A DNA stretch of 64,000 bases from Verrucomicrobiota bacterium (GTDB lineage Bacteria > Verrucomicrobiota > Kiritimatiellia > UBA8416 > JABMPJ01), in NCBI GenBank assembly GCA_018648805.1, contig JABGQM010000024.1:1065-65064 (forward strand), given 5' to 3'. The notes beneath the pieces are model-generated. The model saw only the letters and a list, made by a program, of their open reading frames with translations, was not told the origin of the DNA and did no database searches. This document shows positions 1 to 22,223 of the stretch, in pieces. Position 1 is the stretch's first letter. The number at the start of each line of letters is the position of its first letter. The translations under genes and the position numbers were made by a program.

Positions 1-1198
1 GGCTGCCAGTGCACTGATCAGGCCGGACAACAGCAGTGCCCCGACTGCTTTTCTCGGACCGGACGCGGCGATCGCCCGGTGAAGCAGGCAGTCGACGCCC
101 CACAGCACAGGGACCACCACCGTGACTAGGGCCAGGTACATGCGATGTTCATTGTAGACATTCAGAGTGGGGGCCAGGCTGGATGATGGGGCCAGCAGCA
201 CGAAGAAGGCAAAGCCAAGGAATCCGAGCGGACGCCGCTTGATCGTACCGATCAGGCTGAACACAAACAGGATCGCCAATGGCAGCGCCGGCAGCAGGAT
301 TTCCTGCCAGCCTTGCGAGATGTGGTTGGTGTAGTCGAGCACGAGTCCGCGCGGCCAGAAGGCGAGCCGGAGGTACTTCAAGATGACCAAGGGCTGTGAA
401 GCGGCGTACCTCAGAACTCCGGTAGTGGATGCGTCGCGCGACATCCCTTCAAACGTCGCCGCCACCAGCAGGATCATGATGATCCAGGTTGAGATAAGCC
501 CGAGGTAGAGACCGCGTCGTTGCCGCCAGAGGTGCGCGGGCTTCTGTCCGCTGAACACGTAGTCGTACAGCATCACCAGTATGGGTGCAGTCACCATGCT
601 CTCCTTGGTTCCCATTCCCAGCGCGCAGGCGATCACGGCGATGGTCGGCCAGAGGCGTGGGCGGGTGGTGCTGGAGGCACGGATCGACGCGTAGAGCGTG
701 AGCAGATAGAACATCCCCATCAGCGAGACGGCGCGCTGCACGGTGTAGGTGACCGCCTCCGTCTGCAGCGGATGTACCGCCCACACCATCGCGGCAACCG
801 CGGCGAACGCCGCTGGAACGGCGTGCGGCCGGGACGCCGGCGGCAGGCCCGCGAGGGTCCGCCTCACGATACCGAACAGCAGGAGCGCCGAGGCCAGGTG
901 CACCAGAATATTGATGAGATGAAAGCCCCACGGCGCATCGCCCGTGAGCTGGTAGTTCAGCGCCAGGGAGAGGGCGAGGACCGGGCGCGTATCGACCGTC
1001 GCGCCCGTGTTCCAGAGCGGCAGGCAGAGCGGCTCGGAGAGCGGCCACAGTCGGCGGATATGGGGATTGTCACGGATCGATTCGACATCATCGACCTCAA
1101 AGAACTCCCCCTGCAGACCGCTGGAGAAGGCCAGAATGACGGGAAGGAGGATAAGGAGGAGGGGGAGGAAGCGGTGAAGTTGATGCTTCTTGGTCATA
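1..1198 (-). CDS. TMTC/PMT-like GT-C membrane glycosyltransferase paralog (N-terminal multi-pass domain; C-terminal TPR part lies beyond window edge), partial
   Basis: Reverse-strand translation from ATG at 1198 (MTKKHQLHRFLPLLLILLPVILAFSSG...SIRDNPHIRRLWPLSEP...HLINILVHLASALLLFG...VHPLQTEAVTYTVQRA) is >90% identical to paralog 2531..4492; single frame to window edge; not in ORF track because no stop in window. Confidence 0.7.
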
Positions 1199-1235
1199 CT
1201 TTCTCGTCCGTGCTCATCCACCCATCTCGATTCTG

Positions 1236-1330
1236 ATCAGAGATTAAGGCGAAAGACCAGGGAACCCAAGCACGGATACCTTAATCTTTCGCCTTAATCT
1301 TTTGCCCTGATCTTCTGCCCTGATTTTCTG
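1236..1330. repeat. GATTAAGGCGAAAG hairpin element (family D) + 12-nt tandem (ccctgatcttctg) upstream of paralog 1
   Basis: gattaaggcgaaagaccaggg aacccaagcacggatac cttaatctttcgccttaatc: arms reverse-complementary. Confidence 0.7.
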
Positions 1331-2400
1331 CGCGCCAGATGGTCTGCGATCCAGCGGGCAATCTGACGATTCGCGGGTGCGTTCCAATGTCCATCCGGTG
1401 CCAGCCACTCGCCGCCGTGCGCCAGGTACCCGCGTTCGAGGGGACCATAGAGGTCGAGCAGATCCACACCGGTCTCCTCGAAGGCCTGCCGCATCATCCC
1501 GTAAACGGGCGCATACGGTGCGTTGCGGCGCACATCGTTGATCCCCCGCGCCACGGGCATGGTCACCACGGTCAGTCCGATGTCGTGTTTCTCACACGTG
1601 GCTCTCACCCGAGCCAGTATCAGCCGACTGACCTCAATGGTTTCGTCCGCCTGGACCGGCCTGTCAAGCGTGTCCGGGAGTCGGCCGAAAAGGATGGCGG
1701 CAAGAAAGCAATGGCGGAAGATCCACGGCTGATGAGTGGCCGTCGGCACCGGAACGTTACGGACCGCCAATCCGGCATCGTCCACGTCGAAGTACGGCTT
1801 GGGATGCGTATAGAGGTCAGTCCGGTCACGGACGACGTCCGACGGCAGCATCACCACGAACACCGCGTGATCGGGGTTGAAACCGACCCCCTGCTGCTCC
1901 AGCCGGAGCATCATCTGACCGAAACCGTACGAATTCTCCCCGAAGTTAAGTGCTTCGGTGCCGGGCAGACATGTTTCCAAGAAGGCCGGTACCGTTTGGT
2001 CGTTGTCAACCCACTGCCCCCAGACGCAGGAGTCGCCAAACACGGCAATGCGCGTGATTCCCGAAGCAGGAGAAGGTGCGTAATCGCGAGTGGCGCGCAA
2101 CCCCTGGTTGTTAATTGTCAGCTTGAAGGGAAACAAGGCATCGCCGCGGAGCCCTGGGAGACTGGTCCACCCCAACACCCGGTGATACGTCTCGCCGTTG
2201 GAACGAAAAGCATCGCGCCCCCCGGACTCGGATATCCATTGAGCCACGCCGGTGATGCGCTCGATCTTCCTGTACCGCCAACGCAGGACAAGCTCGGCAC
2301 CAACCAGCACCACTAGCACGGCGAGCAGCACGGTGAGCAGGGCAAACACGCGCCGCTTTCCGCGCGTCGGCGCGTCACTAATGGAGTCGGCTTGTTTCAT
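1294..2400 (-). CDS. SGNH/GDSL-family hydrolase with N-terminal membrane anchor
   Basis: N-terminal TM helix (FALLTVLLAVLVVLVGAELVL); block I IAVFGDSCVWGQ (GDS), block V DGHWNAPAN (DxxH); C-terminal 12 codons read into hairpin repeat D. Confidence 0.65.
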   Translation of the reverse strand: MKQADSISDAPTRGKRRVFALLTVLLAVLVVLVGAELVLRWRYRKIERITGVAQWISESGGRDAFRSNGETYHRVLGWTSLPGLRGDALFPFKLTINNQGLRATRDYAPSPASGITRIAVFGDSCVWGQWVDNDQTVPAFLETCLPGTEALNFGENSYGFGQMMLRLEQQGVGFNPDHAVFVVMLPSDVVRDRTDLYTHPKPYFDVDDAGLAVRNVPVPTATHQPWIFRHCFLAAILFGRLPDTLDRPVQADETIEVSRLILARVRATCEKHDIGLTVVTMPVARGINDVRRNAPYAPVYGMMRQAFEETGVDLLDLYGPLERGYLAHGGEWLAPDGHWNAPANRQIARWIADHLARRKSGQKIRAKD

Positions 2401-2530
2401 TGGAGCATCGGCTCGGTCGCACTTCGCAGCTTGGGTACTTCGGGTTTCATCATTCCTTCAGGCTTCGCGCTTCGCTTGCTACGCCTGGACAAGTGGGTAT
2501 TGGGGTACCTTCCTCCAGAGGCGGACCAGC

Positions 2531-4492
2531 CTATGGCTGGGGGTATTGGGGTATTTCCACCCCTCCCTTTCCCATCATCTCCCTTGTCTTGCGCAGATTC
2601 TCACGTGCCGCATTATAATCCGGCTTCAGTCGCAACGCCCGCTCGAAATGCCGGATCGCGTCGGGAAGCCGGCCGCCGGCCCGGTAGACAATGCCCAGGT
2701 TGTTGTGAGCTTCAGCGAAGTCCGGCTTGAGCCGGACGGCCTGCCGGTAGTGCTCAATCGCTTCGCGGGGGCGGCCCAGCTTCAGCAGGGCGTTGCCCAG
2801 GTTGTAGTGGGCATCCGCCAGGTTCGGCTTGATCCGCACAGCCTCTTGATAGTGGACAATCGCTTCCTGCGGTCGCCCGAGCGCCTCGAGTGCGATGCCC
2901 CAGTTGAAGTGTGCCTCCGCGTGGTCGGGCTCGAGCCGTAGGGCTTCGCTGTAGAGAGGGATCGCCTCCAGTGGGCGGCTCAACTTCAATAGGACATTGC
3001 CCAGGTTGCTGTGAGCGTCTGCCATGCCGGGCTCGAGCCGCAGCGCTTCCTGCAAGTGCAGAACGGCTTCGCGCGGACGTCCCAGCTCCAGCAGGGCATT
3101 GCCCAGATCGTTGTGGGCGGTTGAAGAGTGGGGCCGTTTCTCGACGTTGTCGGTCCAGAATGCCAATGAAGTGCGCCAATCGCGGTTGCGCACGAAGGTT
3201 CCCGTGGCCAGGGCGACTATCAAGGCCGCCGCCAAGAACGCCTCAACGGCTCTGCGTGGGCCGGCCCTGGCGATCCCCCGACGCAGCAGGAGATCAAGCC
3301 CCGCCAGGGCGGAAATCACAACCGTGGCCAACGCCAGGTACATGCGGTGTTCATTGTAGACGTTCAGCGTGGGGGCAATGCTCGACGACGGAGCCAGCAG
3401 CACGAAGAAGGCGAAGCCCAGAAAAGCGACGGGACGCCGCTTGATGATACCGACTAGGCTGAAAACAAACAGAATGACCAACGGAAGCGCCGGCAGCAGG
3501 ATCTCCAACCAGCCTTGCGAGACGCGATTGGTGTAGTCGAGCACGAGCCCGCGTGGCCAGAAGGCGAGGCGCAGGTATTTCAGGATGACCAGGGGCTGTG
3601 ATCCGGCGTAGTGCAGAACGCCCGTACTGGACGCGTCGTGCGCCATCTTCCCGAATGTCGCCGCCACTAGGAGGATCATAATGACCCAGGTCGAGATCAG
3701 CCCGAGGTAGAGGCCGCGGCGTTGGCGCCAGAGGTGGGCGGGCGCCTGTCTACTTGTCTCTGATCCCCCTATGTGGCCTCGCTCTCGGCGAGAGCGGGCT
3801 ACACCCATTGTGCGTCCCTGTAGCCCGCGCTCGCCGAGCGCGAGGCCGCCCCTAAACACGTAGTCATACAGCATCACCAACAAAGGCGCAGTCACCATGC
3901 TCTCCTTGGTTCCCATTCCCAGCGCACAGGCGACGATGGCAATGGCGGTCCAGCGGCATGGGCGGGTGCTGGTGAAGGCGCGAATCGACGCATAGAGCGT
4001 GAGGAGGTAGAACATCCCCATCAGGGAGACGGCGCGCTGCACGGTGTAGGTGACCGCCTCGGTCTGCAGCGGGTGCACCGCCCAGACGGTCGCCGCGACG
4101 GCGGCGAACACCGTCGGCCCGGCGCGCGGCCGGGATGCCTCCGGCAGGGCGGCGAGGGTCCGCCGTGCGATACCGAACAGCAATAGCGCCGAGGCCAGGT
4201 GCACCAGCAGGTTGACCAGATGGAAGCCCCAGGGCGCATCGCCCGTGAGCTGGTAGTTCAGCGCCAAGGAGAGGGCGAGGACCGGTCGCGTATCGACCGT
4301 GGCGCCCGTGTTCCAGAGCGGCAGGCAGAGCGGCTCGGAGAGAGGCCACAGCCGGCGGATATGGGGATTGTCGCGGATCGATTCGACATCATCGACCTCA
4401 AAGAACTCGCCCTGCAGACCGCTGGAAAAGGCCAGAATGACGGGAAGGACGATCAGGAGGAGGGGGAGGAGACGTTTGAGTGGATGTTTCAT
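2531..4492 (-). CDS. TMTC/PMT-like GT-C membrane domain + TPR-repeat protein (paralog 2), with in-frame REP/BIME insertion
   Basis: Conserved N-term YDDxxSIRDNPHIR, HLVNLLVHLA, VHPLQTE(A/S)VTY, MGxK; C-terminal TPR units (AEAHxNLGxAL...). Insertion RGGLALGERGLQGRTMGVARSRRERGHIGGSETS absent from copy 1. Confidence 0.7.
   Translation of the reverse strand: MKHPLKRLLPLLLIVLPVILAFSSGLQGEFFEVDDVESIRDNPHIRRLWPLSEPLCLPLWNTGATVDTRPVLALSLALNYQLTGDAPWGFHLVNLLVHLASALLLFGIARRTLAALPEASRPRAGPTVFAAVAATVWAVHPLQTEAVTYTVQRAVSLMGMFYLLTLYASIRAFTSTRPCRWTAIAIVACALGMGTKESMVTAPLLVMLYDYVFRGGLALGERGLQGRTMGVARSRRERGHIGGSETSRQAPAHLWRQRRGLYLGLISTWVIMILLVAATFGKMAHDASSTGVLHYAGSQPLVILKYLRLAFWPRGLVLDYTNRVSQGWLEILLPALPLVILFVFSLVGIIKRRPVAFLGFAFFVLLAPSSSIAPTLNVYNEHRMYLALATVVISALAGLDLLLRRGIARAGPRRAVEAFLAAALIVALATGTFVRNRDWRTSLAFWTDNVEKRPHSSTAHNDLGNALLELGRPREAVLHLQEALRLEPGMADAHSNLGNVLLKLSRPLEAIPLYSEALRLEPDHAEAHFNWGIALEALGRPQEAIVHYQEAVRIKPNLADAHYNLGNALLKLGRPREAIEHYRQAVRLKPDFAEAHNNLGIVYRAGGRLPDAIRHFERALRLKPDYNAARENLRKTREMMGKGGVEIPQYPQP
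3775..3848. repeat. REP pair (BIME-like) inside CDS 2531..4492, in frame
   Basis: ggcctcgctctcggcgagagcgggctaca...ctgtagcccgcgctcgccgagcgcgaggcc; each REP = GTAG tail + 7-bp stem CGCGCTC/GAGCGCG with 3-nt loop. Confidence 0.85.
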
Positions 4493-4495
4493 CCT

Positions 4496-6460
4496 TCAGC
4501 CTTCATCCTTCATCCCTCTCTTCATCGTCGCCCTCGTCTCCCGCAGATTCCTCTGCGCCGCAGTATAATCCGGCTTCAGTCGCAACGCCCGCTCGAAATG
4601 CCGGATCGCGTCGGGAAGCCGGCCGCCGGCCCGGTAGACAATGCCCAGGTTGTTGTGAGCTTCAGCGAAGTCCGGCTTGAGCCGGACGGCCTGCCGGTAG
4701 TGCTCAATCGCTTCGCGGGGGCGGCCCAGCGCGACCACGGCATTGCCCAGGTTGTAGTGGGCCTCCGGCAGGCCCGGGCTGAGCCGCAGCGCTTCCCGGC
4801 AGTGCTCAGCCGCTTCCCGGGAGCGGCCCAAAGCGTGTAGCGTACTGCCCAGGTTGTTGTGGGCGTCGGCAAAGTCAGGCTTGTGCTGAAGGGCCTCCTC
4901 ATAGTGCAGAATCGCCTGAGCGATGTGCCCCAACGCCTGCAGGGCATTGCCCAGGTTGTGGTGGGCGCGGGCGAAGTCGGGATCGAGCGCCACGGCTGCC
5001 TTAAGATGCTGGGCCGCTTCCGCGTATCGTCCATCCTTCAGCAGGCACCAGCCCACGCCGTTCCGGGCAAACGAACTCTCCGGACGATGGGCGACATTGT
5101 CCTGCCAGATCCGCAGTTCACTGTGATAGTCCCTGTTGCGGGCGTGTGTGAGGCACCCGAGCGCGGCTACGACGGTCAGCGTCAGGCAGCCGCCCAGCAC
5201 GGCCCGCCGTTTCGGATGCGGGGCGAGCTTCCGAATAGCGTATTCAGCGCCAAGAACGGCAAGCATGACGACGGCAGCCAGCGACAGGTACATGCGGTGC
5301 TCAAAGATCGCCTGCCGCATGGGCGCGATGCTCGAGGTCGGCGCCAGGATCAGGAAGAACCACGCGAGCACAAACCCATACCACTTGCGGCGCCACAGGC
5401 CGCGGAACATCACGGCCAGCATGCCCAGGACGGCCAGCCCCGGGAACACGATGCGCGGCCATTGATCCTCCAGCGTCCAGCCGTAGGAGAGCACCAGCGG
5501 CGCGGGCCAGACCGCCAGACGCAGGTACTGCAGCAGAACGAGGGGCTGGGTCAGGGCATAGCGCAGCGGGCTGATGTTGACGAAATCGATCGTTGATTCC
5601 TGCCAGGTGGCGACGATGATCCCGAAGACGATCAGCCAGGTGGAACACAGGGCCGCGTAGAACCGGCCTCGCCCCGGACGTCCGGGGCGGGCTACATGGC
5701 CGCCTCTCTGTAGCCCGCGCTCGCCGAGCGCGAGGCCACCAGGTTTGAGGCCACCAGTGAATACGTAGTCATAGAGAATCACGAGCAGCGGCGCGCTGAA
5801 CATGGTTTGCTTGACCCCCATTCCGATGGCACAGGCGATGACGGCGGCCACGTACCAGCGTCCACCCTTGTCGCTCGTGAACCCACGGATGGAGCAGTAC
5901 ATCGTCAGGAGGAACAGCATGCCCATCAGTGATTCGGCACGTTGCACGATGTAGGTGACGCTCTCGGTCTGCAGCGGGTGCACCAGCCAGATCAGGGCGG
6001 TGGACAGGGCGAGCCAGGTTCCCCTCCTGCGCCAAGGCTCCGGCGGGCAGGCGCTGGATGCATACCGCTCCCGAAACTGCGGCAGGTCCAGCGTGCGCCT
6101 GACGATGCCAAACAGGAGCAGGCCGGCCGCGAGGTGGATCAGCAGGTTGACCAGGTGGTAGCCCCACGGCTCTGGACCGAAGAGCCAGTGGTTTAGGGCA
6201 AAGGAGAGGCTGAGCAGCGGCCGGCCATCCACGGTGACACCGGTGTTCCACAGCGGCAGCGACATGGATTCGCTGAGCGGCCACAGCGCCCGGATATGGG
6301 GATTGTCGCGAATGGAGTCGATATCGTCGAAGAGGAACACGCCGTCGAAACTGTTCCAGTACGCCAGCACCCCCACTAGGATGAGGAGCATGGGAGGGAG
6401 GAGGCGACTCAGCAGTATGTGAGTGTGTGGGTGTGTGGGTGTGTGGGTGTTGCTTTGCAT
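4496..6460 (-). CDS. TMTC/PMT-like GT-C + TPR protein (paralog 3), in-frame REP insertion
   Basis: Same architecture; stop 4 nt from start of paralog 2; loop insertion GGLALGERGLQRGGHVARPGRPGRGRF encoded by REP pair 5666..5737. Confidence 0.7.
   Translation of the reverse strand: MQSNTHTPTHPHTHILLSRLLPPMLLILVGVLAYWNSFDGVFLFDDIDSIRDNPHIRALWPLSESMSLPLWNTGVTVDGRPLLSLSFALNHWLFGPEPWGYHLVNLLIHLAAGLLLFGIVRRTLDLPQFRERYASSACPPEPWRRRGTWLALSTALIWLVHPLQTESVTYIVQRAESLMGMLFLLTMYCSIRGFTSDKGGRWYVAAVIACAIGMGVKQTMFSAPLLVILYDYVFTGGLKPGGLALGERGLQRGGHVARPGRPGRGRFYAALCSTWLIVFGIIVATWQESTIDFVNISPLRYALTQPLVLLQYLRLAVWPAPLVLSYGWTLEDQWPRIVFPGLAVLGMLAVMFRGLWRRKWYGFVLAWFFLILAPTSSIAPMRQAIFEHRMYLSLAAVVMLAVLGAEYAIRKLAPHPKRRAVLGGCLTLTVVAALGCLTHARNRDYHSELRIWQDNVAHRPESSFARNGVGWCLLKDGRYAEAAQHLKAAVALDPDFARAHHNLGNALQALGHIAQAILHYEEALQHKPDFADAHNNLGSTLHALGRSREAAEHCREALRLSPGLPEAHYNLGNAVVALGRPREAIEHYRQAVRLKPDFAEAHNNLGIVYRAGGRLPDAIRHFERALRLKPDYTAAQRNLRETRATMKRGMKDEG
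5666..5737. repeat. REP pair inside CDS 4496..6460, in frame
   Basis: gggctacatgg...ctgtagcccgcgctcgccgagcgcgaggcc. Confidence 0.85.
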
Positions 6461-6545
6461 GACAAACGATTAAGGTGAAAGATTAGGGCGAAAGATTAGG
6501 AAACCCAAGCACGGATACCTTAATCTTTCGCCTTAATCTTTTGCC
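6461..6545. repeat. Family D hairpin element, occupies whole 5' leader of paralog 3
   Basis: gattaaggtgaaagattagggcgaaagattagg aaacccaagcacggatac cttaatctttcgccttaatcttttgccctaatc; ends 5 nt before ATG (minus strand). Confidence 0.75.
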
Positions 6546-10145: not shown

Positions 10146-12409
10146 TTCTGTATCTCCCCTCTCATCTCCCTCGTCTCCCGCAGATTCTCGACCGCTACAG
10201 CATAATCCGGATTCAATCGCACAGCCTCTTCGAAATGCCTGATCGCGTCCGTAAGCCGGCCGCTTTGCTGGTAGAGAGCACCCAGATTGTTGTGGGCCGA
10301 GGCGTCGGCCGGATTGATGCGCACCGCCTGCCGGCCGCGGGCGATGCCCTCATCGGTAAGGCCGAGATGGTGTAGAGCAACGCCCCAGTTCTTGTGGGCG
10401 CCAGCGTAATCCGGCTTGAGCTGCACGACCTGCCGGTAATGCTCGATGGCTTCCCGGGAGCGTCCCAATGCCAGCAGGGCATTGCCCAGGTTGTAGTGGG
10501 CGTCCACCAACGCCGGTTCGATCCGCACGGCCACTTGATAATGAGCAAGCGCGTCCTGCAACCGTCCTGCCGTCTGCAGTGCGATCCCCCAGTTGAAGTG
10601 GGTCTTTGCATCGCCGGGGTTAAGACGTAGCGCCTCCCGGTAGTGCCGAATGGCTTCCAGGGGTTGGCCCATCGCCAGTAGGGCATTGCCCAGGTTGAGA
10701 TGGGCCTCCCCCAGGCCCGGCTTGATCCGTAACGCTTCCCGGGAGTGCTCCGCAGCTTCCCGGGAGCGCCCCATCACCTGCAGAGCGTGACTCAGATTGC
10801 TGTGGGCTTCAGCGTAATTCGGCTGGATCCGCAGGGCCTGCTGATAGTGGACAATCGCCTCTTGCGGCCGCCCCAGGGCGTTAAGCGCAATCCCCAGGTT
10901 GTAGTGCGCCTCTGCGTAGTCCGGGCTGATCCGCAGCGCTTCGCGACAGTGCTCGAGCGCTTCCCGGGAGCGCCCCGAAGCCAGCAGGGCATTACCCAGG
11001 TTGTTGTGGGCCACATGACTCCCGGGACGATAGGTGACATTGTCCTGCCAGATCCCGATTTCGCTGTGATAGGTCCTGTTGCGACCGTGCGTCAGGACGC
11101 CCAACACGATCATGACCGCCATCGTCAGGCAGGCGCCCAGCGCCACACGTTGTTTCGGGATTTTGACGAGCTTTCGAATGGCAACGTCACCCAGCATGAC
11201 CGCCAACGTGACAACGGCAGCCAGCGAGAGATACATGCGATGTTCGAAGATCGCCTGGCGCGTGGGCGCAACGCTGGAGGTCGGGGCCAGGATCAGGAAG
11301 AACCATGCGAGCACAAACCCGTACCACTTGCGGCGCCGGATGCCGCGGCACATCACGGCCAGCAGGCCCAGGATGGCCAACGCAGGGAACACGATGCGAT
11401 ACCATTGATCCTCCATCCCCCATCCATAAGTGAGCACCAGCGGCGAGGGCCAGACCGCCAGACGAAGGTAATGAAGCAGGACAAGGGGTTGGGTAAGGAG
11501 ATAGCGCAGTGGGCTGATGTTGACGAAATCGCTCGTTGATTCCTGCCAGGTGAGCCCAATGATCCCGAAGACGATCAGCCAGGTCGAACAAAGGGCCGCG
11601 TAGAATCGGCCTCGCGCTCGGCCCATCCTTCGCGCTTCGCTGGCTACGGAGGGCAAGCGAGCGCGGGCTACAGAGAGTGGGCCTTGTAGCCCGCGCCCCG
11701 CAGAGCGGGGTAAACTCGCCGCTTGCCCCGCCTTGGCGGGGAGCGCGAGGCCACCAGGTTCGAGGCCACCAGTGAATATGTAATCGTAGAGAATCACGAG
11801 TAGCGGCGCGCTGAACATGGTCTGCTTGACCCCCATGCCGATGGCGCAGGCGAGGACCGCCGCCACGTGCCAGCGTCCACCCTTGTCGCTCGTAAACCCC
11901 CGAATCGAACAGTACATGGTCAGGAGAAACAGCATCCCCATGAGCGACTCGGCGCGTTGCACGATGTAGGTCACGCTCTCGGTCTGCAGCGGATGCACCA
12001 GCCAGATCAAGGCGACGGCAAGCGATAACCAGGTCGGGTTGCCCGGGCATCGCTCGCGAAGGCGCGGCAGGGCCAGTGTACGCCTGACCACCCCGAACAG
12101 CAGCAACCCGGCCCCGATGTGGATCAGCAGGTTGACTAGGTGATAGCCCCACGGTTCCGGGCCGAAGAGCCAGTGGTTCAGGGAGAAAGAGAGGCTGAGC
12201 AGTGGCCGCCCGTCCACGGTCAATGCCGAGCTCCACAGCGGTAGCGACATGGACTCGCTAAGCGGCCAGAGCAGGCGGATGTGGGGGTTATCGCGAATGG
12301 AGGCCAGGTCGTCGTAAACGAACACGCCATCGAAACTGTTCCAGTACGCAAGCACTCCTGCCAAGATGAGCAGGAGGAAGGGAAGCCAGCGCTTGAGTGG
12401 ATGTTTCAT
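10142..12409 (-). CDS. TMTC/PMT-like GT-C + TPR protein (paralog 5), long in-frame REP/BIME insertion
   Basis: Same architecture; ~57-aa insertion LALPAKAGQAASLPRSAGRGLQGPLSVARARLPSVASEARRMGRARGRF encoded by REP cluster 11608..11752. Confidence 0.7.
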   Translation of the reverse strand: MKHPLKRWLPFLLLILAGVLAYWNSFDGVFVYDDLASIRDNPHIRLLWPLSESMSLPLWSSALTVDGRPLLSLSFSLNHWLFGPEPWGYHLVNLLIHIGAGLLLFGVVRRTLALPRLRERCPGNPTWLSLAVALIWLVHPLQTESVTYIVQRAESLMGMLFLLTMYCSIRGFTSDKGGRWHVAAVLACAIGMGVKQTMFSAPLLVILYDYIFTGGLEPGGLALPAKAGQAASLPRSAGRGLQGPLSVARARLPSVASEARRMGRARGRFYAALCSTWLIVFGIIGLTWQESTSDFVNISPLRYLLTQPLVLLHYLRLAVWPSPLVLTYGWGMEDQWYRIVFPALAILGLLAVMCRGIRRRKWYGFVLAWFFLILAPTSSVAPTRQAIFEHRMYLSLAAVVTLAVMLGDVAIRKLVKIPKQRVALGACLTMAVMIVLGVLTHGRNRTYHSEIGIWQDNVTYRPGSHVAHNNLGNALLASGRSREALEHCREALRISPDYAEAHYNLGIALNALGRPQEAIVHYQQALRIQPNYAEAHSNLSHALQVMGRSREAAEHSREALRIKPGLGEAHLNLGNALLAMGQPLEAIRHYREALRLNPGDAKTHFNWGIALQTAGRLQDALAHYQVAVRIEPALVDAHYNLGNALLALGRSREAIEHYRQVVQLKPDYAGAHKNWGVALHHLGLTDEGIARGRQAVRINPADASAHNNLGALYQQSGRLTDAIRHFEEAVRLNPDYAVAVENLRETREMRGEIQK
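11608..11752. repeat. REP/BIME cluster (3-4 units) inside CDS 10142..12409, in frame
   Basis: contains gcgggctacagagagtgggccttgtagcccgcgccccgcagagcggggtaaactcgccgcttgccccgccttggcggggagcgcgaggcc. Confidence 0.8.
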
Positions 12410-12412
12410 CCT

Positions 12413-14455
12413 TCAGCCCTCATCCTTCATCCTTCTCGTCTCCCGCAAATTCTCTCGCGCCACACTGTACTCCGGTTTCAGTCGCAGCGCCTCTTCAAAA
12501 TGCCTGATCGCATCCGGGAGCCGGCCGCTTTCCTGATAGATGGCACCCAGGTTGTTGTGGGCCGAGGCGTCGGCGGGATTGATGCGCACCGCCTGCAGGC
12601 CGTGGACGATGGCCTCATCGTTGCGGCCCAGGTAGAGCAGCGCGACGCCCCAGTTTTTGTGGGCACCGGCGTAGTCCGGCTCACGCAGCAAGACCTGCCG
12701 GTACTGCTCGATCGCTTCCTGTGGTTGCCCCAGCGCCAGCAGGCGATTGCCCAGGTTGTAACGGGCGTCTACCAGGTCCGGGTCGATCCGCACGGCCTTC
12801 CGATAGTGAGACAGTGCGTCCCCCGGCTGCCCTCCCGCCTCAAGTGCGACCCCGTAGTTGTAAAGGGCCTCCGCGTGGCGGGGGTTTAGTCGCACAGCTT
12901 CGCGGTAGTGTTGCATGGCTTCGCGGAGGTCGCCCAGCGCCTGTAGGGCATTGCCCAGGTTGTTGTGGGCATCCGCGTCCATCGGGTCGATACGTAGCGC
13001 TTCCCGGCAGTGTTCGGCCGCTTCGCGGGAACGCCCCAGCGCCTGCAACGCATGGCCCAGGTTATTGTGGGCAACATGGCTCTCGGGTCGATGGGTGACA
13101 TTGTCCTGCCAGATCCGCAGTTGACTGTGATAGTCCCGGTTGCGATCGTGAGTGCGGTATCCCAACACGATCACGCTTGCCAGCGCCAGGCAGCCGCCCA
13201 CTGCGGCACGTCGTTTCGGGTCCGTGGCGAACTTTCGAACAGCGTACTCAGCGCCAAGAACGGCAAGCATGACAGCTGCCGCCAGCGACAGGTACATGCG
13301 ATGCTCGAAGATGGCCTGGCGCATGGGTGCGATGCTGGAGGTCGGGGCCAAGATCAGGAAGAACCACGCGAGAACGAATCCGTACCATTTGCGGCGGACT
13401 ATGCCGCGGAACATCACGGCGAGCATACCCAGGATGGCCAGAGCAGGAAACACGATGCGGGGCCATTGATCCTCCAGCGTCCAGCCGTAGGACAATACCA
13501 GCGGCGAAGGCCAGACCGCCAGGCGCAGGTACTGCAGCAGAACGAGGGGCTGGGTCAGGAGATAGCGCAGCGGGCTGATGCTGACGAAATCGCTCGTCGA
13601 TTCCTGCCAGGTGGCGACGATGATCGCAAAGACGATCAGCCAGGTCGAGCAAAGGGCCGCGTAGAACCGGCCTCGCGCTCGGCCCATCCTTCGCGCTTCG
13701 CTGGCTACGGAGGGCAGGCGAGCGCGGGCTACAGAGAGCGGGTCCTGTAGCCCGCGCCCCGCGGAGCGGGGTAAACTCGCCGCTTGCCCCGCCTTGGCGG
13801 GGAGCGCGAGGCCATCGGTGAATATGTAATCGTAGAGAATCACGAGTAGCGGCGCGCTGAACATGGTCTGCTTGACCCCCATCCCACAGGCACAGGCGAG
13901 GACGGTGGCCGCGTACCAGCGGCCACTCTTCTCGCCTCTGAGTCCCCGAATCGCGCAGTACATCGTCAGCAGGAAGAGCAGCCCCATCAGCGATTCGGCG
14001 CGCTGTACGATGTAGGTTACGCTCTCGGTCTGCAGGGGGTGGACCAGCCAGATCGCTGCCGTGGCCATGGCAATCCAACAGCCACTGCCCTCATACCGCT
14101 CGCGAAACTGTGGAAGATCAAGCGTGCGCCGGACCACTCCGAAGAGCAGCAGCCCGGCCGCGATATGAATCAGAAGGTTGACCAGATGGTAGCCCCGGGG
14201 CTCCGGACCGAGCAGGGCGTGGTTCAGGGCAAAGGAGAGGCTGAGCAGCGGCCGGCCATCCACGGTCATCCCCGTGCTCCACAGCGGCAGCGACATGGAT
14301 TCGCTCAGCGGCCACAGTCTACAGATGTGTGGGTTATCCCGGATGGAGTGGACGTCGTCGTACAGGAACACACCATCGAAGCTGTTCCAATACGCCGCCA
14401 CCCCCACCAGGATAAGGAGGAGGAAGGGAAGCCAGCTCTTGAGCGGATGTTTCAT
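12413..14455 (-). CDS. TMTC/PMT-like GT-C + TPR protein (paralog 6), in-frame REP/BIME insertion
   Basis: Same motifs; insertion identical in type to paralog 5 (REP cluster 13669..13813). Confidence 0.7.
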   Translation of the reverse strand: MKHPLKSWLPFLLLILVGVAAYWNSFDGVFLYDDVHSIRDNPHICRLWPLSESMSLPLWSTGMTVDGRPLLSLSFALNHALLGPEPRGYHLVNLLIHIAAGLLLFGVVRRTLDLPQFRERYEGSGCWIAMATAAIWLVHPLQTESVTYIVQRAESLMGLLFLLTMYCAIRGLRGEKSGRWYAATVLACACGMGVKQTMFSAPLLVILYDYIFTDGLALPAKAGQAASLPRSAGRGLQDPLSVARARLPSVASEARRMGRARGRFYAALCSTWLIVFAIIVATWQESTSDFVSISPLRYLLTQPLVLLQYLRLAVWPSPLVLSYGWTLEDQWPRIVFPALAILGMLAVMFRGIVRRKWYGFVLAWFFLILAPTSSIAPMRQAIFEHRMYLSLAAAVMLAVLGAEYAVRKFATDPKRRAAVGGCLALASVIVLGYRTHDRNRDYHSQLRIWQDNVTHRPESHVAHNNLGHALQALGRSREAAEHCREALRIDPMDADAHNNLGNALQALGDLREAMQHYREAVRLNPRHAEALYNYGVALEAGGQPGDALSHYRKAVRIDPDLVDARYNLGNRLLALGQPQEAIEQYRQVLLREPDYAGAHKNWGVALLYLGRNDEAIVHGLQAVRINPADASAHNNLGAIYQESGRLPDAIRHFEEALRLKPEYSVARENLRETRRMKDEG
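13669..13813. repeat. REP/BIME cluster inside CDS 12413..14455, in frame
   Basis: near-duplicate of 11608..11752 cluster. Confidence 0.8.
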
Positions 14456-14500
14456 CCTTCAGCTTTCATCCTTCATCCCTCATCCCTCATCCCTCATCCC
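14452..14500. repeat. Heptanucleotide tandem repeat (GAGGGAT)4-GAAGGAT spanning stop codon of paralog 7 and RBS/start of paralog 6
   Basis: minus-strand reading: agagggatgagggatgagggatgagggatgaaggatgaaagctgaaggATG; 2-3-unit versions at 4488..4520 and 12405..12440. Confidence 0.75.
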
Positions 14501-16699
14501 TCTCTTCATCATTTTCCTCGCCTTGCGCAGATTATCTCGCGCCGCAGTATAGTCCGGTTTCAATCGCAGCGCCTCTTCAAAATGCCGGATCGCCTCGGCG
14601 AGTCGGCCGCTTTTCTGGTAGGTCATGCCCAGCTTGTAGTGGGCTGGTGCGAACTCCGGTTCGAAACGCAGGGCGTCTCGATAGCAGTCCATCGCCTCCC
14701 CGGGCTTCCCGGCCGCTTCCAGTGCAATCCCCAGGTTGTACTTGACCTCGGGGGAGTGCGGCTTGAGACGGGCTGCTTCACGGTGGTGCCTGACCCCTTC
14801 CCGGGGCTGTCCCTGCGCCAATAGCGCGTTGCCCAGGTTGATGTGAGCTTCCGCGTGATTCGGGTCGAGCTGTATGGCCTCTCGGTAGCGGGCAATCGCT
14901 TGCCGCGGCTCACCGGCTGCCTCCAGGGCAACCCCCATATTGTAGTTGATTCCGACGGAGTCCGGCTTGAGCCTGAGCGCATCCCGGTAATGCACAATCG
15001 CCTCCCGTGGATGCCCGCCTCTCAGCAGGGCATCACCCAGATTGCCCTGGGCGTCTTCCAGGTCCGGCTTGATCCGTACGGCCTCTCGATAGTGATCTAT
15101 CGCCTCCCCCCGCTGTCCCGACACCTCCAGGGCGATACCCAGGTTGTAGTTGACATCGGCGTCGTCCGGTTTGAGCCGAAGCGCCGCCCGGTAGTGCCGT
15201 ATGGCTTCACGGGTCTGCTTCAGAGCTAGCAGGGCATTGCCCAGGTTGTTGTGAGCATCTGCATACTCCGGGTCGATCCGCAGCGCTTCCCGGCAATGCG
15301 GAAGCGCTTCCCGGGCGCGACCCGACGCCAGCAGGGCCTCGCCGAGATTGACGTGGGCCAGCTGGCTCTCCGGCCGATGCGCAACATTGTCCTGCCACAA
15401 CCCGATGGTGCTGTGATAGTCACGGTTGCGAGCATAGGTGAGGGCCCCGAGGACAACCACGACTACCGCTGCCAGGGCGCCACGCGCCATTGCACGCGTT
15501 GAAACCGTGCGAACGCATCGGACCACGCGCGAGACGCCGATCACCGCGAGGACCACGACCGCCGCGAGCGACAGGTACATGCGGTGCTCGACCATCGCCT
15601 GCCGTGTGGGTGCGATGCTGGAGGTCGGTGCGAGGATCAGGAGGAACCACGCCAGGACGAACCCATACCAGCGGCGGCGCCACAGGCCCCGAATCATCAC
15701 GGCCAGCATGCCCAGAATAACCAGGGCCGGAAACACGATGGGTGGCCACTGAGTTGTAAATGGCCACTCGTAAGACAGAACCAGTGGCGACGGCCAGACC
15801 GCCAGGCGCAGATACTGCAGTAGAACGAGGGGCTGGGTAAGGGCGTAGCGCAGCGGACTGATCTCGACAAAATCGATCGTCGATTCCTTCCAGGTTAACC
15901 CGATGATGCCGAGAACGATCAGCCAGGTGGCAAAGAGGCCCGCGTAGAACCGGCCTCGCGCTCGGCGAGCGCGGGCTACATGGCCCGATCTCTGTAGCCC
16001 GCGCTCGCCGAGCGCGAGGCCATCGGTGAATACGTAGTCATAGAGAATCACCAGCAGCGGTGCACTGAACATCGTCTGCTTGACTCCCATGCCGATGGCG
16101 CAGGCGACGACGGCGGCCACGTACCAGCGTCCACCCTTGTCGCTCGTGAACCCCCTAATCGCACAATACATCGTCAACAGAAACAACATCCCCATCAGTG
16201 ACTCGGCGCGTTGCACGATGTAGGTGACGCTCTCGGTCTGCAGCGGATGCACCAGCCAGATCAAGGCGACGGCAAGCGACAACCAGGTCGGGTTGCCCGG
16301 GCATCGCTCGCGAAAGCGCGGCAGGTCCAGTGTACGCCTGACCACCCCGAAGAGGAGCAACCCGGCCACGAGGTGAATCAGCAGGTTGACCAGGTGGTAG
16401 CCCCACGGTTCCGGGCCGAACAAGAAATGATTCAGAGCAAATGACAGACTGAGCAACGGCCGCCCGTCCACGGTCGTAGCCGTGCTCCACAGCGGCAGCG
16501 ACATAGCCTCACTGAGCGGCCACAGCGTGCGGATATGTGGGTTATCCCGAATGGAGGTTAGATCGTCGTACAGGAACACGCCGTCGAAGCTGTTCCAGTA
16601 CGCCAGCACACCCGCCAAGATCAGGAGCAAGGGGGGGAGGAAACGACTCAGCAGTATGTGAGTGTGTGGGTGTCTGGGTATGTTGGTGTTGCGTTGCAT
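14480..16699 (-). CDS. TMTC/PMT-like GT-C + TPR protein (paralog 7), in-frame REP insertion
   Basis: N-term MQRNTNIPRHPHTHILLSRFLPPLLLIL then conserved core; insertion DGLALGERGLQRSGHVARARRARGRF from REP pair 15952..16021. Confidence 0.7.
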   Translation of the reverse strand: MQRNTNIPRHPHTHILLSRFLPPLLLILAGVLAYWNSFDGVFLYDDLTSIRDNPHIRTLWPLSEAMSLPLWSTATTVDGRPLLSLSFALNHFLFGPEPWGYHLVNLLIHLVAGLLLFGVVRRTLDLPRFRERCPGNPTWLSLAVALIWLVHPLQTESVTYIVQRAESLMGMLFLLTMYCAIRGFTSDKGGRWYVAAVVACAIGMGVKQTMFSAPLLVILYDYVFTDGLALGERGLQRSGHVARARRARGRFYAGLFATWLIVLGIIGLTWKESTIDFVEISPLRYALTQPLVLLQYLRLAVWPSPLVLSYEWPFTTQWPPIVFPALVILGMLAVMIRGLWRRRWYGFVLAWFLLILAPTSSIAPTRQAMVEHRMYLSLAAVVVLAVIGVSRVVRCVRTVSTRAMARGALAAVVVVVLGALTYARNRDYHSTIGLWQDNVAHRPESQLAHVNLGEALLASGRAREALPHCREALRIDPEYADAHNNLGNALLALKQTREAIRHYRAALRLKPDDADVNYNLGIALEVSGQRGEAIDHYREAVRIKPDLEDAQGNLGDALLRGGHPREAIVHYRDALRLKPDSVGINYNMGVALEAAGEPRQAIARYREAIQLDPNHAEAHINLGNALLAQGQPREGVRHHREAARLKPHSPEVKYNLGIALEAAGKPGEAMDCYRDALRFEPEFAPAHYKLGMTYQKSGRLAEAIRHFEEALRLKPDYTAARDNLRKARKMMKRGMRDEG
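15952..16021. repeat. REP pair inside CDS 14480..16699, in frame
   Basis: ggcctcgcgctcggcgagcgcgggctaca...ctgtagcccgcgctcgccgagcgcgaggcc. Confidence 0.85.
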
Positions 16700-16775
16700 G
16701 ACAAACGATTAAGGCGAGAGATTAAGGCGAAAGAGTGGAAAACCCAAGCCGGAAACCCTAGTCCTTCGCCCTGAT
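16700..16775. repeat. Family D hairpin element (degenerate copy) in 5' leader of paralog 7
   Basis: gattaaggcgagagattaaggcgaaagagtgg aaaacccaagccggaaacc ctagtccttcgccctgatc. Confidence 0.6.
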
Positions 16776-17025
16776 CGTCCGGGGGCCTCGCCCGGACTTC
16801 CGACGCGGGCGAGAAAGGGAGGGCGGGGTCGAAAGGCGGGGGCATTGAGTGAGGCAGGGCCAGACCTAGAAACTGGAAAGTAGAGTGACGTTCGGGCGTG
16901 GCAGTCTTTCTGCATGCCGAGACCGTGGCGAGTACGATATCCTGGGCGAAGTACCATGTGACCAGCAGAGGCAATGGGCGAGCGCGTATCTTTCTGTGCC
17001 GGTCAGACAACCTGCGATTCCTCGA

Positions 17026-18357: not shown

Positions 18358-18574
18358 GATCTGTAACTCCCTTTTTTTTTTGCGCGGCGATCTGGTATTG
18401 CGCGGTTGAGTTGTTGTCTTGTGAACAGAAGACATAGCATAAATAGTCTTCTTCTCGCAAGAAGATTGTCAAAAGGAAGAGGAGGATGAGAAGACCAAAG
18501 CGCTTAGGGCCAGGCCGGTGAAGCATTCGCCAAGGCCCTGGCCCCATCGCTCCAATCCAGCGTCAGTTAGCGCC

Positions 18575-18720
18575 CTGTAGCCCGTCCCGATTGCGAAACG
18601 CATCGGGACCAAGCGCGAGGCCCTCCCTGTAGCCCGCTCTCGCCGAGAGCGAGGCCGCTCTGTAGGTGGGCAGAGCTCTTGAGCATCCTGCCTCGCGCTC
18701 GGCGAGCGCGGGCTACAGGA
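18575..18720. repeat. Intergenic REP cluster
   Basis: four GTAGCCCG/CGGGCTAC units in alternating orientation. Confidence 0.8.
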
Positions 18721-18782
18721 CTCAGAGTGAAGGTGGCCCTCCCTGTGGTGTAGCGCGAGATCCGAGCTGGCACGGGGCCGGG

Positions 18783-18947
18783 TTAGAACAGCGTGTAGAT
18801 GAAGGGCGCGGCCGACTGACCCACGACCAGCAGCGCCGCCAGCAACAGCAGGACCAGCACGATGGGGATAATCCACCACGCCTTGTTATGCCAGGCGAAC
18901 TCGCCGAATTCCTTGAGCAGCCGCCCTATATGTTTAAGAAATAGCAT
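18783..18947 (-). CDS. SxtK-like small membrane protein (54 aa) of the kind associated with O-carbamoyltransferases
   Basis: MLFLKHIGRLLKEFGEFAWHNKAWWIIPIVLVLLLLAALLVVGQSAAPFIYTLF: single TM helix, C-terminal APFIYTLF signature recalled from sxtK-type proteins. Confidence 0.5.
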   Translation of the reverse strand: MLFLKHIGRLLKEFGEFAWHNKAWWIIPIVLVLLLLAALLVVGQSAAPFIYTLF

Positions 18948-19084
18948 GGAAGCGCATCTCCTCTTGTCCCATCCACCGCACCGATGTTCCAAACCCCAAT
19001 ATTAGCCTGATCTATTCATAAAATCCACTACGAATGCATATCTCCCGCCATCTCAAGGACTTTGCGACGAATGCCGATCTCAAC

Positions 19085-21929: not shown

Positions 21930-22223
21930 CAGCGCGGGCTACGTAGCCCAGAGTGAAGTTGGCCGGTCCGCATCCCGCATGGCCCTCCCAGTAGCCCGCT
22001 CTCGCCTGCCCTCCGTCTTGTCCTCCAAAGCTCGCAGAGCGACGGAGGAAGCCAGCGAAGCGCGAAGGATGGGCCGAGAGCGAGGCCGCTCTATGATGGT
22101 GCAGAGCTCTTAAGCATCCTGCCTCGCGCTTGGCAAGCGCGGGCTACATAGCCCAGAGTGAAGTCACCCGGTCCGCATCCTGCATGGCCCTCCCTGTAGC
22201 CCGCGCTCGCCGAGCGCGAGGCC
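21930..22223. repeat. Intergenic REP/BIME array (about six units with a ~90-bp composite unit duplicated at 21932 and 22138)
   Basis: gcgcgggctac(g/a)tagcccagagtgaagt...ctgtagcccgcgctcgccgagcgcgaggcc. Confidence 0.8.

Follow-up and report, generated by a model that had tools for sequence, protein, structure and literature searches.

The 64,000-nt stretch analysed here, referred to as the window, comes from contig JABGQM010000024.1 of a Verrucomicrobiota bacterium (positions 1,065 to 65,064). In its positions 1-16699 it carries an array of seven paralogous genes on the minus strand that encode predicted membrane glycosyltransferases of the GT-C superfamily. Each protein has a multipass N-terminal domain of ~430 aa, followed in the six complete copies by 5-8 tetratricopeptide repeats (TPRs), as estimated from the number of Pfam stretches and from arm length divided by 34. 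The remaining copy, c1, is truncated at the window edge. Interleaved with the paralogs are two genes for SGNH enzymes, and an eighth paralog, c8, is encoded on the plus strand in another part of the window. The genes, with their window coordinates, are as follows.

1-1197, minus strand: c1, partial, 399 aa visible, running off the window start; GT-C-like membrane domain of clade A, PMT_2 at 31.3 bits; any TPR part falls outside the window.
1294-2400, minus strand: SGNH-1, 368 aa, N-terminal membrane anchor, predicted SGNH-fold hydrolase or acyltransferase.
2531-4492, minus strand: c2, 653 aa, GT-C domain and about 5 TPRs, clade A membrane domain.
4496-6460, minus strand: c3, 654 aa, GT-C domain and about 5 TPRs, clade B.
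6546-8606, minus strand: c4, 686 aa, GT-C domain and about 6 TPRs, clade B.
8607-10145, minus strand: SGNH-2, 512 aa, membrane-anchored canonical SGNH hydrolase with a C-terminal TPR block.
10142-12409, minus strand: c5, 755 aa, GT-C domain and about 8 TPRs, clade B.
12413-14455, minus strand: c6, 680 aa, GT-C domain and about 6 TPRs, clade B.
14480-16699, minus strand: c7, 739 aa, GT-C domain and about 8 TPRs, clade B; the membrane domain that was modelled.
48813-51170, plus strand: c8, 785 aa, eighth paralog, clade B, found by tblastn.

The initial annotation had described seven same-strand GT-C and TPR paralogs, and the open reading frames (ORFs), tblastn and Pfam all agree with this description. 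The gaps that it gave (3 to 90 nt) were roughly right, the measured range being -4 to 130 nt. The motifs that it quoted are present: DD/SIRDNPHI (as YDD or FDD in c3-c7 and VDD in c1 and c2), HL(V/I)N(L/I)L.H, VHPLQTE.VTY and GMG.K. A tblastn search with the c7 membrane domain recovered all seven array copies at E ≤ 4e-90 and, in addition, the eighth copy to which the initial annotation had alluded. A 751-aa ORF at 19552-21807 was considered as that eighth copy and rejected, as it encodes a NodU-type carbamoyltransferase. The paralogs form two clades, A (c1 and c2) and B (c3-c8). The N-terminal domains are 87% identical between c1 and c2, 80-88% identical among c3-c7 and about 50% identical between clades, and c8 groups with clade B at 75-79% nucleotide identity. 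A promoter and terminator scan of positions 1-19000 showed no enrichment relative to shuffled sequences.

An AlphaFold2 model of c7 residues 1-440, calculated from a 66-sequence alignment, has a predicted local distance difference test score (pLDDT) of 92.2 and a predicted template modelling score (pTM) of 0.93. All Foldseek matches to this model with a probability of at least 0.7 are GT-C enzymes. Protein O-mannosyltransferases (PMTs) are the best structural neighbours, and the figures listed for other neighbours are 16.8 for PIGU, 16.3 for AglB, 16.2 for ArnT, 15.7 for AftB and 15.7 for PglB. The Pfam family PMT_2 is matched weakly in c1, c2, c3 and c7 (25-31 bits, with a cut-off of 26.1), and GtrII is sub-threshold.

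The helix map of the model has 11 transmembrane (TM) helices and a cytoplasmic N-terminus, if the amphipathic helix at residues 282-301 is counted as juxtamembrane, as has been argued for TMTC proteins. Loops placed inside contain 13 Lys and Arg per 49 residues, compared with 8 per 151 in loops placed outside. On this map the loops with D45-D46, HPLQTE, GMG.K and EHRMY, together with the long loop at 258-318 and the TPR arm, are all assigned to the periplasm (residues are numbered as in c7). The acidic motif of the GT-C superfamily occupies the first extracytoplasmic loop, directly after TM1, with D45 conserved in 66/66 homologs and D46 in 55/66. Across these 66 homologs, which share 42-80% identity, the invariant residues are D45, R80, P81, H109, H151, P152, Q163, R164, K207, R373 and Y375. 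TPR matches in Pfam extend from about residue 430 to the C-terminus and are of the consensus/OGT type. The initial annotation had proposed a GT-C fold with an acidic loop in the periplasm. The predicted topology is of GT-C type and the acidic loop is predicted to be periplasmic, so that a GT-C reading is well supported at the level of modelled fold, topology and motifs.

A resemblance to the eukaryotic TMTC enzymes had also been suggested. Eisenhaber and colleagues (PMC7801869) describe TMTC1-4 as proteins with 11 TM helices, a cytoplasmic N-terminus, a luminal TPR region and seven motifs, and report that prokaryotic homologues exist. The bacterial proteins share this layout, as judged from the helix map, the charge bias and Pfam: 11 TM helices, the N-terminus inside and an extracytoplasmic C-terminal TPR array. 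Counterparts of the seven motifs, sought in the motif table and in the peptides quoted in that paper rather than in aligned TMTC sequences, are as follows.

M1 (DD): D45 (66/66) and D46 (55/66).
M2 (SHKSYRP): R80-P81 within TVDGRPLLSLSFALN, compared with the TMTC1 peptide SHKSYRPLCVLTSFRLN; only the R-P-L..L(S/T)F.LN part is matched.
TM3 peptide: VHPLQTE (LVHPLQTE) in the bacterial proteins, FAVHPIHT in TMTC3.
M3 (RxD): Q163-R164-A-E166.
M4 (KE(T/Q)xxT): G203-M-G-x-K207, with E as the next residue in 57/66; the pattern is K-(E/Q)-x-x-x-(S/T), where clade A has K-E and clade B has K-Q.
M5 (DW in the DUF1736 loop): L306-x-x-(D in 41/66)-Y310-x-W312, preceded by a hydrophobic juxtamembrane helix; clade A has D-Y-x-(W/N), clade B (S/T/E)-Y-x-W.
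M6 (PxxP): P358 ... P364 (P-x5-P).
M7 (ERxxY): E371-H-R373-M-Y375.

The architecture thus agrees with the suggested resemblance and the motif counterparts do so in part, while the Pfam family DUF1736 is not matched. By eye, a segment PLRYALTQPLVLLQYLRLAVWPSPLVLSY.W that ends in (D/S)-Y-x-W is found at the place of DUF1736, between TM7 and TM8. In common with TMTC1-4 (family GT105), the bacterial proteins have a GT-C domain of ~430 aa with 11 TM helices, DD in the first extracytoplasmic loop, extracytoplasmic C-terminal TPRs and counterparts, some of them partial, of M1-M7. Unlike TMTC1-4, they are without DUF1736, their M2 is without H-K-S-Y and their M7 reads E-H-R-M-Y instead of E-R-x-x-Y. 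The setting would also differ, with the endoplasmic reticulum, a dolichol donor and cadherin substrates in the case of TMTC, and the periplasm and probably an undecaprenyl-type donor in the case of the bacterial proteins. We therefore describe these proteins as TMTC-like in predicted architecture and motifs rather than as strict members of GT105.

The resemblance to other known GT-C enzymes is more limited. Sequence identity to the PMT family (GT39, including yeast Pmt1/2/4 and actinobacterial Pmt) is just 9-13%. Unlike PMTs, the copies have no MIR domain, and a C-terminal TPR arm takes the place of the luminal beta-trefoil inserted in a loop. Pfam PMT (PF02366) and MIR were both absent from the copies, in which only PMT_2 (PF13231) was found, at threshold level, and neither phmmer nor a profile matched PMT chains in the PDB. 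Among bacterial GT-Cs of this architecture, literature searches found a single one that has been studied by experiment, TfpW of P. aeruginosa. This pilin D-arabinofuranosyl transferase of 646 aa is needed for pilin O-glycosylation and has 11 predicted TM helices, a DDx motif in the periplasm and TPRs at its C-terminus (bioRxiv 10.1101/2020.04.19.049825). As far as published descriptions (rather than aligned sequences) allow a comparison, TfpW resembles the proteins encoded here in its cytoplasmic N-terminus and in its periplasmic DDx motif and C-terminal TPRs. Unlike TfpW, which is encoded by a single gene beside its pilin, the proteins of this locus have no adjacent pilin gene and comprise 8 or more paralogs. 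Automated pipelines name these proteins 'protein O-mannosyl-transferase' (JGI, an automated label) and 'tetratricopeptide repeat protein' (NCBI).

The two interleaved genes had been annotated as membrane-anchored SGNH hydrolases, one of them fused to TPRs, and Pfam, conserved blocks and predicted fold bear this out. SGNH-2 has an N-terminal membrane helix, and its translation contains the blocks LLGDSIV (GDS), LNFGVGG, FWNDF and DGWHPN. It matches Lipase_GDSL_2 at 30.1 bits, slightly under the cut-off of 32.9, and has about three C-terminal TPRs (TPR_2, TPR_17 and others, residues ~390-500). SGNH-1 also has an N-terminal membrane helix, and ALGX and Lipase_GDSL_2 are sub-threshold by sequence. 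Its model (pLDDT 88.2) has a predicted SGNH fold; the top structural neighbour is CgnD, a peptide-cleaving SGNH enzyme, and others include carbohydrate esterases and PatB. With 28 matches, the family of SGNH-1 is small, and G122-D123-S124, N152, G154 and H338 are invariant in it. Some members have precomputed ALGX and Lipase_GDSL_2 matches, and one (P0124) is fused to TPRs. Both genes encode blocks I (GDS), II (G), III (N) and V (DxxH) and a flavodoxin-like fold, and their products are SGNH enzymes that face the periplasm, with a predicted hydrolase or acyltransferase function. Features of O-acetyltransferases of the AlgX/PatB type were not found: no specific hidden Markov model scored above threshold, and there was no MBOAT partner among the window ORFs scanned. 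Unlike CgnD, the carbohydrate esterases and AlgX/PatB, both proteins have an N-terminal membrane anchor, and SGNH-2, as well as P0124, has a TPR fusion. Interleaving of SGNH genes was found only in the lineage of the window itself and in one locus from another species (L003, described below).

Between ~19500 and 58000 the window carries an extensive sugar-modification island, which encodes a NodU-like carbamoyltransferase, five radical-SAM/SPASM proteins, a B12-radical-SAM protein, two transketolase sets (one of which is split into two ORFs), a PseC/LegC-like (DegT) aminotransferase, a WbuC cupin, a methyltransferase, a heptosyltransferase-like GT9, three GT2 proteins of ~240 aa and a TIGR00374 flippase-like protein. 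As judged from their sequences, these genes together suggest synthesis of an unusual sugar. The following are candidates for the supply of a lipid-linked donor.

55141-55857, plus strand: GT2, candidate polyprenyl-phosphate-sugar synthase, 238 aa, Pfam Glycos_transf_2.
39762-40493, plus strand, and 44402-45166, minus strand: two similar GT2 genes.
30504-31568, minus strand: flippase-like membrane protein, candidate lipid-linked-sugar flippase; LPG_synthase_TM (PF03706) at 142.7 bits and TIGR00374 at 81.4 bits, above cut-off.

A GT2 synthase, a flippase and a GT-C transferase make up the three-component layout known from periplasmic glycosylation (PMC11127046). The window has candidate genes for each of these components, as in GtrA/B/C, ArnC/ArnT, CsbB/GtcA/YfhO and GT136 systems, and an operon of such order occurs in locus L003. 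Unlike in these systems, the candidate flippase is of the LPG_synthase_TM/TIGR00374 type and not of the GtrA, SMR or MATE type, the GT2 proteins would, at ~240 aa, be too short for the C-terminal membrane helices of the GtrB/ArnC type, and the GT-C proteins have TPRs in place of a carbohydrate-binding module. Nor are the three components encoded in one operon.

The island is broken up by genes of kinds that are frequent in defence or mobile contexts. Identified were a Schlafen AlbA_2/HATPase_c_4 protein (25633-27015), a DUF4062 protein (27012-27848) and a PIN-domain protein (28662-29120). Further genes of this type encode an AAA_14/DUF4143 ATPase (17026-18435) and an ATPase_2/AAA_16 protein (62314-63804).

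The family to which the paralogs belong is very large. A profile of the N-terminal domain matched 73,139, 40,322 and 10,422 clusters (50% identity) at E ≤ 1e-3, 1e-10 and 1e-30, respectively. In a separate search, at least 7,200 clusters at 90% identity passed E ≤ 1e-5. In a scan of GTDB species genomes, relatives were found in Verrucomicrobiota, Planctomycetota, Acidobacteriota, Myxococcales, Nitrospinia, Eisenbacteria and Chloroflexi. Gene neighbourhoods were surveyed in 80 loci of at most 21 kb, all from other species. At least two copies are present in 17 of these loci, at least three in 8 and six in four, and two of the six-copy loci (L044 and L063) are uninterrupted same-strand arrays. 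Since Verrucomicrobiota, Planctomycetota and Acidobacteriota repeatedly have such arrays, with as many as 6 copies, we conclude that tandem amplification is a recurrent habit of the family, for which the array in the window is not unusual. A Pfam census of 135 ORFs that flank family members in the 80 loci identified no conserved partner, including no partner for polysaccharide synthesis.

One of these loci, L003, is part of a 657-kb metagenome contig (8262-21756). There, a relative of ~50% identity is encoded in a tight operon in the order GT2, LPG_synthase_TM, GT-C/TPR and SGNH, so that the module of the window is conserved at a distance. Downstream are three more SGNH genes, a radical-SAM gene and genes for Lcl_C/ankyrin proteins, and upstream are a split transketolase and PhyH, epimerase, SIS and HldE-like genes. 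A second comparison is with a sister strain (JGI contig 3300072015; L085-L088). Its gene order is c8, transketolase, radical SAM and GT2, then SGNH-TPR (609 aa), SGNH (363 aa), P0008, AAA_14/DUF4143, c7 and c6, so that a GT2 directly adjoins the SGNH/GT-C array. P0008 is a ninth paralog of 736 aa. Relative to the sister strain, the c8 block of the window is inverted and lies at a distance of 30 kb, and there is no P0008 unit. The difference in order reflects either rearrangement between strains or a difference in assembly.

The initial annotation had proposed a recent expansion, with divergent N-termini and a possibility of positive selection in the TPR arms. Pairwise comparisons by the Nei-Gojobori method gave the following rates of synonymous substitution (dS) and ratios of nonsynonymous to synonymous substitution (dN/dS).

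N-domains within clade B: dS 0.42-0.84, dN/dS 0.19-0.29.
N-domains of c1 and c2: dS 0.52, dN/dS 0.18.
N-domains between clades (c2 and clade B): dS above 1 and saturated, dN/dS 0.35-0.46.
TPR arms: dS 0.5-1.5, dN/dS 0.27-0.59.

The dS values, 0.42-0.84 within clade B and above 1 between the clades, show that the expansion is not a recent one. Purifying selection acts on every copy, with weaker constraint on the TPR arms; the pairwise ratio is below 1 everywhere, and the arms as a whole give no sign of positive selection. The N-termini do differ, as proposed, and the differences are patchily common to different copies: MKHPLK is found in c2, c5 and c6, and an extension rich in His, Thr and Pro in c3, c7 and c8. 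We attribute these common blocks to gene conversion, since the genes are mosaics. The nearest paralog switches along the codon alignment, with local nucleotide identity of 91-100%. The copies c4 and c5 are 95-98% identical in two blocks, and c5 and c7 are 93-97% identical in another. Over the last TPRs, c2 and c3 have a nucleotide identity of 92-100% despite membrane domains of different clades. A test of the pairwise homoplasy index (PHI) type, applied to the clade B N-domains with 225 informative sites, gave 0.415, compared with 0.510 ± 0.007 in 1000 permutations (p<0.001).

Within c2-c7, the cytoplasmic loop between TM6 and TM7, which follows LYDYVF and has low pLDDT, is encoded by an in-frame palindromic repeat. 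A GTAG lies next to a palindrome in each arm, and we therefore assign the element to the repetitive extragenic palindromic (REP) sequences as a GTAG-REP doublet (REPIN-like). The REP unit is (CT)GTAG-CCCGCGCTCGCCGAGCGCGAGGCC, and two arms of ~30 nt, GGCCTCGCGCTCGGCGAGCGCGGGCTACAG and its complement, encode GLALGERGLQ...VARARRARGR. The copies are located as follows.

3713-3853 (c2), 5663-5758 (c3), 7842-7934 (c4), 11606-11773 (c5), 13667-13819 (c6) and 15950-16027 (c7), all minus strand: in-frame GTAG-REP elements.
About 18627-18718, 22194-22223, 22945-22974, 29629-29658, 30352-30447, 32278-32348, 35205-35234, 38245-38337 and 44319-44390: intergenic GTAG-REP copies.

The REP arm has 21 matches in the window at ≤3 mismatches, with 0 expected, and those outside the paralogs sit between long ORFs. 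The pairs within ORFs are predicted to fold into ~30-bp hairpins with energies of -61 to -80 kcal/mol (z -8 to -10), and in c5 and c6 a second element is nested in the first. In c1, in c8 and in the wider family the loop is plain and 14 aa long (48/66 parsable homologs); the insert is present just in the closest relatives, in several modular variants. In c2, c3, c4 and c7 the arms are 97-100% identical, compared with 75-85% for the coding DNA around them, which suggests recent insertion, homogenisation or selection on the element. No Rfam family matched the element, the Rfam scan of the window being empty, and no RAYT transposase gene was noticed in the window. GTAG REPs are abundant in the verrucomicrobium Opitutus terrae, where in-frame REP dimers encode 20-30 aa, and intragenic REP dimers have also been described in Rickettsia, as RPEs (Di Nocera et al. 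2013, PMC3733652). The elements in the window resemble these in having two inverted units of ~30 nt with GTAG by a short palindrome. Unlike in O. terrae and Rickettsia, they occupy the same loop of six paralogs, sometimes with a nested second element. We considered the in-frame palindrome as a new phenomenon and rejected this idea, given that intragenic GTAG REP dimers are already known in Verrucomicrobia (PMC3733652). The insertion is thus a known phenomenon, and what is notable is its presence at one site in six paralogs.

A different type of repeat is found at three gene junctions of the array.

14451-14510 (c7/c6), minus strand: heptamer tract [A/G]GGATGA, ~9 units.
12405-12435 (c6/c5) and 4488-4526 (c3/c2), minus strand: shorter heptamer tracts (4-9 units overall).

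These tracts encode a ...GM(K/R)DEG tail, hold the TGA stop and run into the AAGG-ATG-AAA (Shine-Dalgarno sequence and ATG) of the next gene. They are possibly a footprint of unequal crossing-over or a device for translational coupling. Also present, directly after the start codon of c3 (codons ~5-15, window 6418-6450), is the octamer CACCCACA in 4.1 units with 96% match. Gain or loss of one unit would shift the frame, and this tract is the sole, weak candidate for phase variation. Related to it are a degenerate DNA version in c7 and a peptide rich in His, Thr and Pro in c8.

Taking the model, the motifs and the gene context together, we propose, with about an even chance of being right, that the eight genes encode inner-membrane GT-C glycosyltransferases of a bacterial TMTC-like family that use polyprenyl-phosphate sugars in the periplasm, with protein as the most likely acceptor. 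In the scheme that we infer for the donor lipid and sugar, the protein acceptor, the division of labour among paralogs and the roles of the SGNH, GT2 and flippase-like proteins, the GT2 would load polyprenyl phosphate with a sugar, possibly an unusual one, in the cytoplasm, and the flippase-like protein would expose this donor to the periplasm. The GT-C paralogs, with the catalytic loop after TM1 (Asp45) in the periplasm, would then move the sugar onto an acceptor held by the TPR arm. Use of a polyprenyl-phosphate-linked donor is suggested by analogy with all GT-C enzymes. The acceptor would most likely be Ser or Thr of secreted or membrane proteins, by analogy with TMTC1-4, PMTs and TfpW. Differences between the paralogs are mostly in how long the TPR arm is and in its sequence, and the copies may divide the range of acceptors, while the SGNH enzymes may acylate or deacylate the same substrates. 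We favour protein acceptors because the characterised enzymes that combine GT-C with TPRs (TMTC and TfpW) act on proteins, because PMTs are the best structural neighbours and because the TPRs are of the consensus/OGT type.

Several results weigh against this proposal. Pfam DUF1736 (PF08409), which matches every human TMTC at E<1e-30 (PMC7801869), was absent when the seven membrane domains of the array were scanned with hmmscan at E ≤ 10. The same scan returned PMT_2, GtrII and DUF6962, and DUF4271, OppC_N and V-ATPase_su_f at chance level; the membrane domain of c8, scanned at E ≤ 0.001, gave PMT_2 only. Neither phmmer with a single sequence nor a 10-sequence profile matched the membrane domain to PDB chains of solved GT-Cs, so that the tie to these enzymes is by fold alone. 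Literature searches found no characterised member of this bacterial clade. The GT2 proteins are without a specific signature of polyprenyl-phosphate synthases and have only generic, sub-threshold similarity to ArnC, DPMS, PgfS and AglJ in the PDB and NCBIfam. Among the 80 loci from other species, tblastn identified SGNH, GT2 and flippase-like neighbours only in L003, plus a GT2 in 4 loci, in a search whose sensitivity for SGNH was low. The genomic context is O-antigen- or exopolysaccharide-like (PseC/LegC-like aminotransferase, WbuC cupin, GT9, carbamoyltransferase) and would fit a glycan acceptor equally well. The same is true of the SGNH enzymes, which are typically carbohydrate (de)acetylases. 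Finally, the catalytic competence of clade B is not guaranteed, because both of its putative metal-ligand positions have changed.

The context of the island and the SGNH partners make a glycan acceptor a serious rival, although on balance we think it rather unlikely. According to this alternative, the GT-C paralogs, working in a Gtr-like manner in the periplasm, would attach side-chain sugars to O-antigen, capsule or exopolysaccharide, with an unusual sugar from the neighbouring island as the donor. The TPR arms would be scaffolds to the export machinery or to each other, and the SGNH enzymes would (de)acetylate the polymer. The wealth of polysaccharide-type sugar genes in the window, including the transketolases, the radical-SAM genes and the three GT2 genes, is consistent with this, and so is the combination of GT2, flippase-like protein and GT-C in the L003 operon, which matches the three-component layout (PMC11127046). 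The weak AlgX matches of SGNH-1 and its neighbours among carbohydrate esterases and PatB point in the same direction. Periplasmic TPR domains are, moreover, common in exopolysaccharide systems (AlgK, BcsC, PelB and PgaA), and models for these four proteins gave weak matches. Against a glycan acceptor, the GT-Cs characterised as modifying glycans carry carbohydrate-binding modules and not TPR arms (PMC11127046), and both characterised types of GT-C with TPRs, TMTC and TfpW, are protein glycosyltransferases. In addition, conserved polysaccharide neighbours are missing from the 80 loci, and CgnD, the top structural neighbour of SGNH-1, cleaves peptides. A further question is whether clade B proteins are active glycosyltransferases. 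The residue after K207 (208) is Gln in all six clade B copies and Glu in clade A and in 57/66 of the family, while residue 309, the 'D' of LVLDY, is Ser or Thr in c3-c7, Glu in c8 and Asp in c1, c2 and 41/66. The changes at 208 and 309 are thus correlated and clade-specific, and the two corresponding acidic residues of TMTC, in M4 and M5, have been modelled as ligands of a divalent ion (PMC7801869). Clade B (c3-c8) could accordingly comprise impaired pseudo-enzymes that serve as TPR scaffolds or adaptors for clade A (c1 and c2), for example in heteromers like the PMT1/PMT2 pairs; PMTs are described as obligate dimers in PMC7759382. We regard this as improbable. Asp45 and every other invariant residue are kept in all eight copies, and the metal site of TMTC is itself a modelling inference from ArnT and not an experimental result (PMC7801869). 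Gln at 208 occurs in 8/66 and Ser at 309 in 11/66 of the homologs, mostly in clade B relatives or the proteins of the window itself, so that the variant persists at least in the lineage. Purifying selection is stronger on the clade B membrane domains than on the TPR arms, and the dN/dS of about 0.2 leads us to favour a functional variant over decay, with some room left for a role as pseudo-enzyme or adaptor.

Whichever acceptor is used, the repeats and the mosaic structure raise the possibility that the array generates diversity. The initial annotation had suggested a contingency family. In such a locus, slippage of repeats and recombination between paralogs, helped by the REP hairpins and heptamer junctions, would switch or reshuffle the acceptor-recognising arms in use. 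In its favour are the switches of nearest partner and the PHI result, the octamer after the c3 start codon and the heptamers at three junctions, the (near-)identity of the REP arms in c2, c3, c4 and c7 within coding DNA that is less alike, and the additional copy and other arrangement in the sister strain. The suggestion is not supported, however, and we consider it very improbable. The octamer is the single tract within an ORF that is capable of a frameshift, and it has only four units, with a degenerate version in c7 and a related peptide in c8. The heptamer tracts stop before the ATG of the downstream gene itself, and a change in their length would therefore not switch that ORF. All eight ORFs are intact, and gene conversion is expected among tandem paralogs even without adaptive switching. 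A broader speculation, which we hold to be quite improbable, is that of a self-diversifying system for periplasmic protein glycosylation. Here, at least nine GT-C/TPR paralogs in the pan-genome of the species would continually exchange membrane-domain and TPR segments by gene conversion at REP hairpins and heptamer junctions. The exchange would create novel acceptor specificities, and the sugar transferred would be an unusual one from the neighbouring radical-SAM/transketolase island. In addition, the 30-bp hairpins within ORFs would tune expression post-transcriptionally (e.g., through RNase III cleavage or ribosome pausing), and clade B would be a metal-independent catalytic variant of the TMTC-type site. 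Finally, the array or its copy number might be an artefact of metagenome assembly of repeated genes, given that the source is an uncultured Verrucomicrobia population and that the sequence past the AAA_14 gene is unlike between the window and a JGI contig. This is extremely unlikely. That JGI contig, of 63.3 kb and independently assembled, has identical gene order and product lengths (739-680-755-512-686-654-653), and the c7 protein is found exactly on two ENA contigs; a simple artefact is thus unlikely. Contigs of metagenome-assembled genomes labelled 'Verrucomicrobia bacterium' at NCBI carry several of these proteins, and one of 66.9 kb has c2, c4, c5 and a 631-aa form of c3. The copies are also easily told apart, since their protein sequences differ by 12-50%.

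The locus confirms the existing automated annotation and is a large, well-preserved example rather than a new type of system. The family is concentrated in Verrucomicrobiota, Planctomycetota and Acidobacteriota, phyla with poorly known envelope glycobiology. The locus should be useful for choosing experiments, with two variants of the catalytic motif adjacent to each other, TPR arms of graded length, an SGNH enzyme tagged with TPRs and a candidate donor pathway nearby. It may also help to explain how the human TMTCs arose and how they work; these enzymes are tied to brain malformation and hearing loss and are still without a solved structure.

Also identified were repeats of other types. An in-frame insertion of 243 nt in c8 (49410-49652, GC 52%) adds about 74 residues of odd composition to the cytoplasmic loop between TM4 and TM5. 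It shares segments with intergenic repeats at 51294-51408, downstream of c8, and at 55902-56026, downstream of a GT2 gene, and probably belongs to a second family of mobile repeats. The leaders of c3 (6468-6551), c7 (16707-16734) and c1 (1279-1331) contain 13-nt repeats, GATTAAGGCGAAA in 2.5 units and the inverse TTTCGCCTTAATC in 2.5 units. In the c3 leader the two arrays are mutually inverted and could pair; the c7 leader has one array, and that of c1 has two overlapping arrays of related but different units.

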